In this document: piece by piece, positions 2,208 through 37,155 of the stretch
Layout: each line of letters begins with the position of its first letter
Position numbering within the stretch: the stretch's first letter is position 1
Source of the DNA: Alphaproteobacteria bacterium
GTDB taxonomy: Bacteria > Pseudomonadota > Alphaproteobacteria > Bin95
Reading direction: 5' to 3'
Assembly (NCBI GenBank): GCA_029978325.1
Contig: JAPOJR010000003.1
Location: 1-57,653, forward strand
Length of the DNA: 57,653 nucleotides
Notes under the pieces: model-generated
What the model was told of the DNA's origin: nothing
Databases searched by the model: none
The model's input: only the letters and a program-made list of their open reading frames with translations
Translations under genes and position numbers: made by a program

Positions 2208-2281
2208 TGGCTGGGGAACCTGGATTCGAACCAGGGCTACCGGAGTCAGAGTCCGGGGTTCTACCGCTAAACTATTCCCCA
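2208..2281 (-). tRNA. tRNA-Gln (anticodon CTG)
   Basis: Reverse complement TGGGGAATAGTTTAGCGGTAGAACCCCGGACTCTGACTCCGGTAGCCCTGGTTCGAATCCAGGTTCCCCAGCCA: 74 nt, cloverleaf, GTTCGAATC T-loop, encoded CCA. Confidence 0.97.
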
Positions 2282-33533: not shown

Positions 33534-33884
33534 CTATTCGATCGGCACAAAGATCGAATGGCGCAATTGCCCGGCAATCGCCTTGGAGCAATGGCCTTTG
33601 CCATGGGTATCCTCGACCAGGATCACCTCTCCCGCCCCGATCACACGGGCCTCGCCGTCGCTGGCCGTGATCTGGACGCCGGCATCCAGGTTGATGATGT
33701 ACTGCCGCCGCGGCGCCGGGTGCCAGTCATAGTCATAGGTGCCGGGTGTTTCGCGAAAAATGATGCCGGTAGCCGGCAATGTCGCCGACGTCTGGCCGCC
33801 TGGCCCCTGGTTTTTCCACTCCACCTCGATATCGCGGAAATGGGATTCGCCCTGGTCATCGACGTAGAGATTATGAATGCGCAT
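33534..33884 (-). CDS. Cupin-fold protein
   Basis: DDQGESHF, WHPAPRRQ, LVEDTHGKGH. Confidence 0.8.
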   Translation of the reverse strand: MRIHNLYVDDQGESHFRDIEVEWKNQGPGGQTSATLPATGIIFRETPGTYDYDWHPAPRRQYIINLDAGVQITASDGEARVIGAGEVILVEDTHGKGHCSKAIAGQLRHSIFVPIE

Positions 33885-34145
33885 GCCTGTGGTCCTTGGC
33901 TGAACGAGATACCGGAGCTTACCCCAATCGCGAGGAAGCGCCAGCCCGACGCGACCGACACAAAATTTTTACATAACTGAAATATTCCCATTGACTCACA
34001 ACCACAGTGTGACAACATCAGTATACAGATCAACCGGATCCACCCCATCGCTGAAGAAGCGATCAGACAATCCAGGACAACGGTCGATCTGAAGCGCGGG
34101 CATGCTATCATGTCCGCATCCGATACCAGGAGGTATGCTAGCCGC

Positions 34146-34181
34146 ATGAGTCCACCTGCTTATCACCTGGGGTCGCTCTGA
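34146..34181 (+). CDS. Putative 11-aa small ORF MSPPAYHLGSL (module 1)
   Basis: GGAGG at 34129-34133; paralogous to modules 2 and 3 with the same length; translation unproven. Confidence 0.35.
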   Translation: MSPPAYHLGSL

Positions 34182-34276
34182 ACAGAACGGCCCAGCCCAA
34201 ACGATGATCGCATGAGCGTCAACGCTTTGGGCCTACCGAACACAGGATATTCCGTAACCTGGAGGATGCTCTGAGC

Positions 34277-34312
34277 ATGATTCCACCGGAACAGAACCTG
34301 GGGCTGCTTTAA
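34277..34312 (+). CDS. Putative 11-aa small ORF MIPPEQNLGLL (module 2)
   Basis: GGAGG at 34261-34265; same M-x-P-P start and stop position. Confidence 0.35.
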   Translation: MIPPEQNLGLL

Positions 34313-34404
34313 CGAGATCAGCCCGCCTTAACCGCCGGTTGCGACAGCGCTGACGGTAGGACATGAGATTTAAAGTGTTCCGTTGCCAGGAGGGTGCGTT
34401 TCGC

Positions 34405-34440
34405 ATGACCCCGCCGGATCAGGATCACCGCCCTTACTAA
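34405..34440 (+). CDS. Putative 11-aa small ORF MTPPDQDHRPY (module 3)
   Basis: GGAGG at 34389-34393; same M-x-P-P start and stop position. Confidence 0.35.
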   Translation: MTPPDQDHRPY

Positions 34441-34455
34441 AGCGTAAGGGCAAAA

Positions 34456-34508
34456 GCGCGGTGCGCACGCCGGAGGATTGTCCCGGTAGTGCCGCCGCGT
34501 TTTTTATT
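34456..34508 (+). terminator. Rho-independent terminator-like hairpin
   Basis: GCGCGGTG(C)GCACGCCGG...CCGGT(A)GTGCCGCCGCGT stem followed by TTTTTTATT; AAAA on the 5' side suggests it may act in both directions. Confidence 0.65.
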
Positions 34509-34568
34509 GCATTGTAACACCGCCCCCATCGAACGGACCGACCGACGATTTCAAGTGCGCCCTGCTGC

Positions 34569-34671
34569 TAGAGCAACGCCCGATCAAATGGAGTCATTTG
34601 ATCGGGCGTTGCTCGCCATTCATAGAGTTAGAGCGGATTCACCCGATCCTATCGGATCGGGATCTGCTCTA
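34569..34671. repeat. Composite palindromic intergenic repeat (two dyads; copy 2)
   Basis: GAGCAACGCCCGATCAAATG-GAGT-CATTTGATCGGGCGTTGCTC (34571-34614), then TAGAGCGGATTCACCCGATCCTATCGGATCGGGATCTGCTCTA (34629-34671). Confidence 0.9.
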
Positions 34672-37155
34672 AAGGCGCTCCGCCCGTAGACGCAACGCGT
34701 TGCCGATGACCGAGACGGAGGACAGGCTCATCGCCACCGCCGCAATCATCGGCGACAGCAGCAATCCGAAGACCGGATACAACACGCCCGCTGCAATAGG
34801 AACGCCGACGCCGTTGTAGCAAAAGGCAAAGAAGAGGTTTTGCCGGATATTGCGCATCGTTGCGCCCGCAAGCCGCCGGGCCCGTACGATACCCGTCAAA
34901 TCACCCTTTACCAAAGTAATGCCAGCGCTTTCCATCGCCACATCAGCGCCGGAGCCCATCGCGATCCCTACATCGGCCGCGGCCAAAGCCGGCGCATCGT
35001 TGATGCCGTCACCGGCCATGGCCACTTTGAATCCCTGCCGATGCAAGGTATCGACCAACTCCCGCTTCGCCGCCGGGCTGGCATCAGCGTGAACCTCGTC
35101 TATGCCAAGTCGTTCTGCAATGGCATTGGCCGTGCGCTGGCTATCGCCTGTCGCCATGACGATGCGCAAGCCCGTAGCCCTGAGGCTTTGCAGCGCTTGC
35201 AGCGTCGTCGCCTTGATGGGATCGGCGACGGCAATGATCCCGGAGATGACGCCATCCACCGCAACGAACATCGCAGATTTACCCTCCACTTGCAGCGCCT
35301 CTGCGCGCGCAGCCTGTTCTGCGCTCGCGCCGCCAAAGCCGGCCATCATGGCCCGGTTGCCCAAAGCCACGGCCATGCCATCCACCGAACCCCGGACACC
35401 CTGGCCCACCATCGCCTCAAACTCTGAAACCGGAAGACGTTCAGCGCCCTGCGCTTCCGCCCCGGCGACAATCGCTTCCGCCAGCGGATGCTCCGAGCCC
35501 CGCTCCAGCGCCGCCGCCAATGCCAGCAAGCGCTGCTCGTCGAGCCCGCCAAAAGCTAGCACGTCGGTCAACGCAGGCTTGCCTTCCGTCAATGTCCCGG
35601 TCTTGTCGACCACCAATACGTCCACGCCGGCAAACCGCTCCAGCGCTTCGGCATCCCGAATCAGGATACCGGCCTGCGCGCCGCGGCCGGTCGCCACCAT
35701 GATCGACATCGGCGTCGCCAGGCCCAGGGCGCAGGGACAGGCGATGATCAGCACGCTCACCGCCGCCACCACCGCATAACTCAGCGCCGGCGCCGGCCCG
35801 AACGCCACCCAGCCGAAGAACGCCAGCACCGCAACGCTCACCACCGCCGGCACGAACCAACCGGCGACCTTGTCGGCCATCGCCTGAATCGGCGCGCGGC
35901 TGCGTTGCGCGCTGGCGACCATGGTAACGATGCGGGCAAGCATGGTCTCCGCCCCTACTCGCTCCGCCCGCATCAGGAAGGAGCCGGTCTTGTTCAGCGT
36001 GCCACCGGTCACAGCATCGCCAGCGGTCTTTTCCACTGGCAGAGGCTCGCCCGTCAGCATGCTTTCGTCGATAGCGGAATGCCCCTCGGTCACGCTGCCA
36101 TCGACCGGCACGCTTTCGCCCGGCCGCACCCGCAGCAAATCACCGGCCTTGACCTGATCCAGCGGCACGTCCCGCTCATCGGAACCGGACACGACCCGTG
36201 CCGTTTTTGGCGCAAGGTTCAGCAAGGCCCGAATGGCGTCGCCGGTGCGCTCTCTCGCCGTCAATTCCATCACCTGCCCGAACAGCACCAGGATCAGGAT
36301 CACCGCAGCCGCCTCGAAATAGACCGGCGGCATCCCATGCGCTGTGCGCAGTGAAGCCGGGAACACGCCGGGCAGCAGCACACTTGCCAGACTGAACAGA
36401 TAGGCCGCGCCGGTGCCGATGGCGATCAATGTCCACATGTTGAAATTGCCGGTGCGGATCGACGACCAGCCGCGCTTGAAAAATGGCGCGCCGATCCAGA
36501 CCACCACCGGCGTCGCCAGCAGCAATTGCAGCCAGACGTGCACCTGCGGCCCCAGCCAGTGCGCAATCGGAATGCCGGTATGGCTGCCCATTTCCAGCAC
36601 AAGCACCGCCAGAGCCAGAGGCGCGCCCAGCCAAAGCCGCCGCCGGAAATCCACCAATTCCGGATTGGGTCCGGCATCGGCGGTCGGCGTCATCGGCTCC
36701 AAGGCCATGCCGCAGATCGGACAATCACCGAATTCCTCGGTGACGATCTCTGGGTCCATCGGACAAGTGTAGAGCGTCCCTGCCGGCATTGGCTCCGGCT
36801 CCGGCCGGTCGCCCAACCAGGTCTCCGGATCGGCTTCAAAACGCGATAGGCATCCGCCAGAGCAAAAATAGAACCGCTCGCCCGCATGCTTGGCCATGTG
36901 CTTGGCAGTGGCGCGGAACACGGTCATGCCGCACACAGGATCGGTAGCCTCGATAAACGGCTCCGGCTCCGCTATGAACCGGTCATGGCACCGTGTTGCG
37001 CAAAAATGGAACAGATGCCCAGCATGCTCCGCCGACGGCTTGCCCGCGTGAGGATCGACGGTCATGCCGCAGACCGGGTCGCGGGTGACAGATTCAGAAC
37101 GATGAGCAGATGCGCACACAGGCGTTTTCCTCATATGCGAAAGGAAGCCAGTCAT
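34669..37155 (-). CDS. copA: Cu(I)-translocating P1B-type ATPase with two YHS domains (start may be 37134 or later)
   Basis: DPVCGM x2, [34 protein letters not shown] and MSLSS TM ligands. Confidence 0.93.

Follow-up and report, generated by a model that had tools for sequence, protein, structure and literature searches.

The window analysed here is a 57,653-nt stretch of alphaproteobacterial DNA (assembly GCA_029978325.1, contig JAPOJR010000003.1). Its largest segment without long open reading frames lies between two minus-strand genes (Table 1), and a rough ORF-coverage check agrees on this point with the preliminary description, which had located a set of repeats in the largest gene-free gap. 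The 116-aa ORF on one side gave as its sole NCBIfam match a faint, cupin-like one (mandelonitrile lyase, E = 0.057), and it adjoins the same locus in two further genomes of the genus, G005 and G008. Besides the copper ATPase on the other side, the neighbours of the locus include a TIM-barrel protein and an amidohydrolase. None of the neighbouring genes encodes a modifying enzyme, as had been noted earlier.

Table 1. Positions of the features at the three-module locus in the 57,653-nt window
Feature	Position	Strand	Remarks
116-aa ORF without Pfam family	33534-33884	-	divergent from the sRNA promoter
Gene-free stretch	33885-34668		flanked by two minus-strand genes
Putative promoter	33991-34018	+	-35 TTGACT 33991-33996, 16-nt spacer, -10-like CAACAT 34013-34018; read from the sequence
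Putative whole transcription unit	34025-34505	+	structured RNA of ~480 nt; from fold and homologs
Module 1	34119-34250	+	covariance-model score 54.5 bits
Module 1, hairpin A	34122-34164	+	SD 34129-34133, AUG 34146-34148, CCACC 34152-34156
Module 1, mini-ORF	34146-34181	+	MSPPAYHLGSL, 11 codons, stop TGA
Module 1, hairpin B	34170-34193	+	stop inside; followed by linker hairpin
Module 2	34251-34378	+	covariance-model score 54.9 bits
Module 2, hairpin A	34251-34290	+	SD 34261-34265, AUG 34277-34279
Module 2, mini-ORF	34277-34312	+	MIPPEQNLGLL, 11 codons, stop TAA
Module 2, hairpin B	34301-34324	+	stop in loop
Module 3	34379-34452	+	covariance-model score 58.5 bits; fold z = -2.4
Module 3, hairpin A	34379-34424	+	SD 34389-34393, AUG 34405-34407
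Module 3, mini-ORF	34405-34440	+	MTPPDQDHRPY, 11 codons, stop TAA
Module 3, hairpin B	34430-34451	+	stop at 5' end of loop
Putative Rho-independent terminator	34456-34505	+	long G+C-rich stem 34456-34499, then TTTTTT 34500-34505; from sequence and folds
Copper P-type ATPase with YHS and HMBD domains	34669-37155	-	convergent to the sRNA

The proposed promoter was not called by a sigma-70 consensus scan, and the proposed terminator was not listed by a simple terminator scan that allowed loops of up to 8 nt and stems of up to 20 bp. The TTGAC box and its spacing are kept in front of homologs from the genus and from two other families, and the terminator is kept in G005 and G008 with covarying and wobble changes. 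Transcription would start near 34025-34027. The whole RNA folds with a minimum free energy of -187 kcal/mol (z = -4.2 against shuffles, for a 471-nt stretch). Downstream of the unit there is no co-oriented gene, the next one being the convergent ATPase gene. The three modules appear to form a single plus-strand unit from promoter to terminator, independent of any downstream cistron, which is in line with the modular sRNA that the preliminary description had offered as one of its options.

In Rfam 15 the window gave at the gathering threshold only a tRNA gene (2211-2281, minus strand). With the limit relaxed to E = 10, the region 33850-34700 gave nothing but chance miRNA-like matches on a neighbouring palindromic repeat, and 14 homologous loci gave no match at E up to 0.01. 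The literature searched held no description of the module, and queries with sequence strings and with the peptide MTPPALT gave unrelated primers only. A Ribo-seq paper on S. meliloti and its supplements contain no MTPP or MSPP sORF, the module sequence is absent from the sRNA catalogue of Azospirillum brasilense Sp245 and its supplements, and no matching description was found in the literature on EF-P, polyproline and leader peptides. The putative sRNA family that the module defines is absent from Rfam and from the literature searched; the earlier statement that no named family could be recognised still stands.

The palindromic repeat is an element of about 105 nt at 34568-34672, in the interval from the sRNA terminator to the 3' end of the ATPase gene, and its two 20-nt arms, 34571-34590 and 34595-34614, are perfect inverted copies of each other. 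The element is dispersed over dozens of contigs of the assembly, with 79 matches at 74-97% identity, and is missing at the same site in the 93%-identical locus of G005. It looks like a REP/MITE-like insertion, and it is the source of the spurious miRNA-like Rfam matches at the locus.

Three periodic modules, each with an SD and an 11-codon ORF, had been described before from the letters of the sequence. Sequence reading and a repeat finder both place core repeats at 34119, 34251 and 34379, which are 132 and 128 nt apart. In the 57.6-kb window there are three matches to the pattern GGAGG-N1-2-TGC-N5-GCATGA-NN-CC-N-CC, against none in 100 dinucleotide shuffles, and a covariance model finds the same three copies and no others in the window, even when the search is extended to the entire assembly. 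Across the three copies 29 columns of a 60-nt core are identical. Each module folds into a hairpin A that locks the SD and the AUG, a hairpin B whose loop contains or adjoins the stop codon, and a linker hairpin. In the minimum free energy folds of all three modules GGAGG pairs with CCNCC, and a small stem at the tip of hairpin A takes in the A and U of the AUG; this recovers the single hairpin for SD and AUG that had been proposed.

The whole locus, with promoter box, three modules and terminator, is present in G005 at 93% identity and in G008 at 72%, and RNAalifold retains the architecture. The emphasis that the preliminary description placed on a length of exactly 11 codons was justified for all three frames in the own genome, G005 and G008, but this exact length is limited to the clade of the window; in the family as a whole the frames have 7, 8, 10, 11, 16-17, 21-27 or 53-89 codons, with 7-11 in most relatives. 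The G008 peptides are MSPPAYHLRSL, MVPPAQHLGLL and MTPPDQKHRPY; modules 2 and 3 of this genome carry TAG in place of TAA, and the loop of module 3 differs. In ORF1, Ser is replaced by Leu in G005, and G008 has a synonymous change of TCG to TCA together with a replacement of Gly by Arg. All of these changes go together with compensatory or wobble substitutions in the arms of hairpin B (GGUCG/CGGCC, GGUUG/CGACC and GGUCAC/GUGACC). Changes in ORF1 track the pairing of hairpin B, and RNA structure therefore constrains these nominally coding bases.

A covariance-model search of related genomes had been recommended as a check, and it recovered homologs in the genus, in Azospirillaceae and in further alphaproteobacterial families. 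Models of hairpin A were built from 9 modules (R1) and from 17 (R2), and their E-values are rough. In the genus of the window 7 of 10 genomes have model matches, with one to three modules each. Matches were also found in 81 of 130 Azospirillaceae genomes, in 41 of 81 genomes of a second alphaproteobacterial family (f70), in 4 of 6 of a third (f77), and, in a class-wide sample of 401 genomes, in 10 other genomes belonging to 6 families. A phylum-wide sample of 300 other genomes gave no matches; together with the matches in the class this indicates that the model is specific and that the family is patchy within Alphaproteobacteria. A pattern scan of the genome collection also picked up L004, L007 and L009, three other alphaproteobacterial MAGs with single-module copies. 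One named member is carried by plasmid p4 of Azospirillum argentinense Az39, where it occupies an unannotated interval next to phbB, and its frame ends after MSPPALT. This Azospirillum copy maps to about 215,100-215,400 of NZ_CP007797. Outside the genus the RNA is usually a single-module one of about 170-280 nt that has a TTGAC promoter box and a terminator of its own, and in which strong conservation is confined to hairpin A; some relatives have tandem genes or carry two modules in one RNA. Flanking genes vary between lineages, and a naive survey of 16 loci, which yielded mostly wrong-frame ORFs in G+C-rich DNA, gave no recurring neighbour. On these comparisons the modules almost certainly belong to a real, conserved RNA gene family.

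Some weaker matches were set aside. In a sister genus, L017 1500-1620 and L018 1440-1560 are not members. Both lack the AUG, and they are located just upstream of a gene whose translated start looks, by eye, like that of metK (S-adenosylmethionine synthetase). With GGGAGGG..GCAUCCGCCGG in their sequence, they probably represent a different leader element. A strict-pattern match in the actinobacterial Aurantimicrobium MAG L005 (1990-2110; CCAGGAGGATGC..GGCATGATTCCGCC) opens M-I-P-P and lies upstream of a second SD and ATG; it is probably a chance match or an ordinary gene leader.

The distribution and the organization of the unit bear on the view that the modules serve a neighbouring gene as a cis-acting leader, attenuator or RNA thermometer, or are functionless decaying repeats. 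ROSE and fourU thermometers sit in the 5'UTRs of heat-shock or virulence genes. They share with the module an SD and AUG held in an imperfect hairpin with internal mismatches, and the A.A or A.G mismatch of hairpin A resembles this type; the module RNA differs in having no downstream gene and no Rfam match to ROSE or anything else, and a thermometer of this kind was rejected for these reasons. Proline-codon mini-ORFs serve as sensors in the Salmonella mgt leaders. The mgtP and mgtL proline-codon ORFs and the classical leader peptides are located in operon leaders or intergenic regions and control a downstream gene in cis. Translation of a regulatory mini-ORF that remodels the RNA is also described for mgtQ (PMC8092293). 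With such mini-ORFs the module shares a very short ORF laid over alternative stem-loops, early proline codons and, in the reading preferred below, an act of translation that would matter more than the peptide. Yet the unit is an sRNA without a co-oriented gene that could be controlled, a strong terminator ends it, and its flanking genes change from lineage to lineage. A leader-peptide attenuator was further rejected on the ground that there are only two Pro codons, which double as anti-SD. Decay is excluded by conservation across four or more families. Taken as a whole, a cis-acting or decaying element is highly improbable.

The constraint on hairpin A was quantified on 76 model matches (75 distinct) and on an overlapping set of 77 pattern-defined modules. 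The ATG, the GGAGG and the CC.CC of codons 3-4 are invariant in 76 of 76 model matches, the core containing a perfect SD (CCAGGAGGRUG). The four pairs between GGAGG and CC.CC are G-C in 75, 75, 75 and 71 of 75 distinct modules, the last position having four G.U pairs, and the middle A of GGAGG faces an A or G as a mismatch. Above it, the A and U of the start codon are part of a 4-bp stem, RUGN/N'CAU, whose apical pair shows free covariation (C-G 41, U.G 10, A-U 9, U-A 6, G-C 1) and is the only pair not tied to SD or AUG. The other pairs of hairpin A are invariant apart from G.U, and covariation accordingly supports one pair only. The 4-nt internal loop, formed by the G of the AUG and codon 2, shows no indels. 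The distance between SD and AUG is 10-14 nt, mostly 11-13, and the caveat of a long spacing raised for the three copies extends to the whole family. Invariant SD and AUG letters next to one free pair fit sequence-specific reading by the ribosome, and are also compatible with another sequence-specific reader.

The codons inside the hairpin are restricted at the RNA level. Codon 3 is CCA in about 86-87% of the 76-77 family members and the third base of codon 2 is U in 84%, against 12% CCA among the prolines and 7% ACT among the threonines of the window genes. Since the synonymous sites of codons 2 and 3 are frozen against the codon bias, selection at the RNA level acts on these nominally coding bases. 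The preliminary description had taken third-position variation of the Pro codons in the three copies as a coding sign, and the prevalence of CCA at codon 3 across the family removes this argument. In four modules Leu-Pro replaces Pro-Pro through a C to U change at codon 3, with the pairing kept as G.U. With the frozen CCA this means that Pro-Pro is confounded with the anti-SD function, and Pro-Pro may be only the anti-SD.

These constraints could also be explained if the RNA were a purely non-coding riboregulator, in which hairpin A is a recognition element or masked seed and the AUG and the stops are never decoded. In one version the CUCCACC arm would be an anti-SD seed that is held inactive by an internal SD mimic; in another the GGAGGRUG arm would act as a decoy that binds CCUCC-type sRNAs, 30S subunits or an RNA-binding protein. 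A hairpin kept as a seed or as a binding site would account for hairpin A as the sole strongly conserved block, for the frozen synonymous positions, for a CCNCC register that is just what pairs with the SD, and for an SD-AUG spacing above the optimal one. It would also agree with the retention of downstream parts as RNA and not in frame, and with a second SD-like box in single-module relatives, GAGGUGA, that is not followed by an AUG. Against it stands the start codon, which is retained in all 76 model matches even though the pair beside it in the stem is free to covary. A CsrA sponge of the CsrB/RsmZ type was rejected; the GGA lies in a stem and not in a loop, and no CsrA gene (PF02599) was found in the 88%-complete assembly, with control genomes positive.

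The second SD-like box occurs in Azospirillaceae members near the 5' end of the RNA, as GAGGUGA(A) or GGAGGGUGA. It was seen at L043 1425-1445 and in L036, L037 and L045-L068, and could be a standby or decoy site.

The reading frame opened by the AUG provides further evidence on whether it is decoded. Its median length is 8 codons, and in 24 of the 27 sequence clusters it comprises no more than 11, whereas the +2 frame stays within this limit in 3 of 27 (Wilcoxon p = 1e-5 for frame 0 vs +2, the 27 clusters being phylogenetically not fully independent). The local frequency of stop triplets is 0.033, from which a chance stop by codon 11 is calculated for about one-fifth of the lineages. Long frames were found in three of the 27 clusters. 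The triplets TGA, TAA and TAG interchange at a fixed position, and in a group of 15 members codon 7 is hypervariable (CAC, TGT, TAT, TCT, GAT, TGG, TTT and others) and is followed directly by a stop in 15 of 15. The enrichment of early stops in frame 0 as compared with +2 and the exchange of all three stop codons at one site are not expected if the stops are never decoded. Early in-frame stops and an invariant AUG point to real translation, and we consider it fairly probable that the mini-ORF is translated; a purely non-coding role is plausible but less likely. The earlier proposal of translation locked by structure is supported by the sequestered SD and AUG, by the retention of the AUG and by the preference for an early in-frame stop. 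It had also been argued that loss of the ATG or of the stop position in homologs would indicate an RNA or DNA element; the ATG proved to be kept in every model match, but the length of the frame and its register relative to a conserved downstream hairpin vary.

Translation of a frame does not make the peptide its purpose. According to the multi-peptide cassette of the preliminary description, the three 11-residue peptides are the products (signal, RiPP precursor or type-I-toxin-like) and the structure keeps their translation off. The threefold occurrence of 11-codon frames in the own genome, G005 and G008, the family-wide M-x-P-P-x N terminus, and an SD sequestered as in type I toxin mRNAs would agree with this. 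The peptides, however, are hydrophilic, mostly 7-11 residues long, and differ between lineages beyond M-[TSI]-P-P-x, that is, past residue 5. In L009 the conserved hairpin further downstream, GUUGCCGA...UCGGCAAC, falls into a frame that gives LPTAWHRQ, in L033 into a different one that gives VADHLAS, and in a 27-codon subgroup the translated extension corresponds to RNA that lies untranslated past the stop in 7-codon sisters. The non-synonymous changes in ORF1 follow the compensatory pairing of hairpin B, and no adjacent maturase, transporter or antisense unit was seen. Given the variable peptides, frame lengths of 7 to 89 codons, the hairpin read in two frames and the frozen sites, the peptide cassette is rejected; we regard it as very unlikely, and the peptide is in all likelihood not the selected product.

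A RiPP cassette was dismissed, with no conserved leader or core peptide past residue 5 and no maturase or transporter among the neighbours. In the type I toxin mRNAs hok, tisB and aapA1 the SD is occluded by an intramolecular anti-SD and translation needs refolding or processing. The module RNA shares with them the stand-alone transcript and the occluded SD, GGAGG being paired with CCNCC in 75 of 75 distinct modules. It differs in having no hydrophobic or transmembrane toxin of 20-60 aa, the peptides here being of 11 aa, hydrophilic and variable, and a type I toxin was rejected on this basis. When the minus strand was scanned over 33885-34668, no sequence resembling a promoter or a terminator was noted, nor any antisense antitoxin unit.

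Other parallels are found among dual-function sRNAs. The rnTrpL-peTrpL RNA of Sinorhizobium meliloti acts as both sRNA and small mRNA with a short ORF (PMC6614838, PMC7298713). Like this RNA and SgrS-SgrT, RNAIII-hld, SR1-SR1P and Spot 42-SpfP, the unit described here appears as an independent short transcript with its own terminator, has a short ORF with an SD in a structured RNA, and is conserved as RNA beyond the ORF. Unlike them, the module has an ORF of mostly 7-11 codons with a peptide unconserved past M-T/S/I-P-P-x, an SD that is always locked by its own codons 3-4, and one to three copies per RNA; no sequence or Rfam relationship exists, and the module has no known base-pairing target or peptide function. 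Minigenes and start-stops (lambda bar, E. coli start-stops, the 23S rRNA E-peptide) have frames of 1-5 codons and lack a conserved locked hairpin. They share with the module a strong ribosome-binding site that opens a frame too short for a folded protein, and possibly an effect exerted through ribosome capture and release or peptidyl-tRNA handling. The module differs from them by its fixed M-x-P-P start and by a structure that is conserved across families.

In view of the above, the reading that we consider best, and to which we give a modest preference, is a new family of sRNAs in which a self-locked initiation site opens a throw-away mini-ORF. The unit, the module with its conservation and distribution, the invariant SD and AUG and the early in-frame stops are observed in the sequences; transcription and translation of the unit, as well as what translation does, are inferred. 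The locus would produce a stand-alone plus-strand RNA of about 480 nt consisting of three tandem duplicates of one module. In the predicted fold the SD is paired with the in-frame CCN-CCN of codons 3-4, with the A and U of the AUG in the 4-bp apical stem. Opening of this hairpin, for which heat, a partner RNA or protein, or a co-transcriptional window are candidates, would gate ribosome loading. The ribosome would then most likely initiate, read the very short frame (11 codons here) and end at the stop in or beside the next hairpin. The peptide would be a by-product, with selection acting on the RNA module and on the act and extent of ribosome loading. Translation could remodel or protect the RNA, or titrate ribosomes, and would have to halt before the remaining molecule is unfolded. 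The RNA probably acts in trans, with the RNA itself or the ribosome-RNA interaction as output. In the genome of the window the module would be present in triplicate within a single transcript.

A more far-reaching and speculative proposal, which we consider rather improbable, is that these RNAs form a widespread alphaproteobacterial class of translation-gated sRNAs with the ribosome as ligand, the triplicated form being cooperative or of higher gain. The frame would start with fMet-Thr/Ser-Pro-Pro, encoded by the same bases that lock the SD, and initiation and the first peptide bonds could depend both on hairpin opening and on Pro-Pro elongation (EF-P, prolyl-tRNA). Fold, stability or trans activity of the RNA would then report translational status.

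If the reading as a self-locked initiation site with a throw-away mini-ORF holds, an uncatalogued sRNA family is common in Azospirillum-type plant-associated bacteria and occurs in several other alphaproteobacterial families. Its conserved core would consist of a ribosome-binding site together with the start codon and the four opening codons, in place of an ordinary seed. It would add a sequence-defined case to the few bacterial RNAs that need translation of a frame too short to give a useful peptide. The single-module copy beside phbB on a plasmid of Azospirillum brasilense/argentinense could serve as a tractable model for the regulatory use of mini-ORF translation, for SD occlusion and possibly for Pro-Pro decoding. 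In more than 120 of the searched genomes the covariance model points to a gene that current annotation lacks.

The two-module RNAs of G002, G003 and G009, finally, carry a conserved 3' domain where the window has module 3. This domain is located at L013 1700-1900, L015 1700-1900 and L016 1570-1780, and contains the blocks ...UGGCAGAAGGC..GAGGAAGCC..GGUUAGGCAAAUG...
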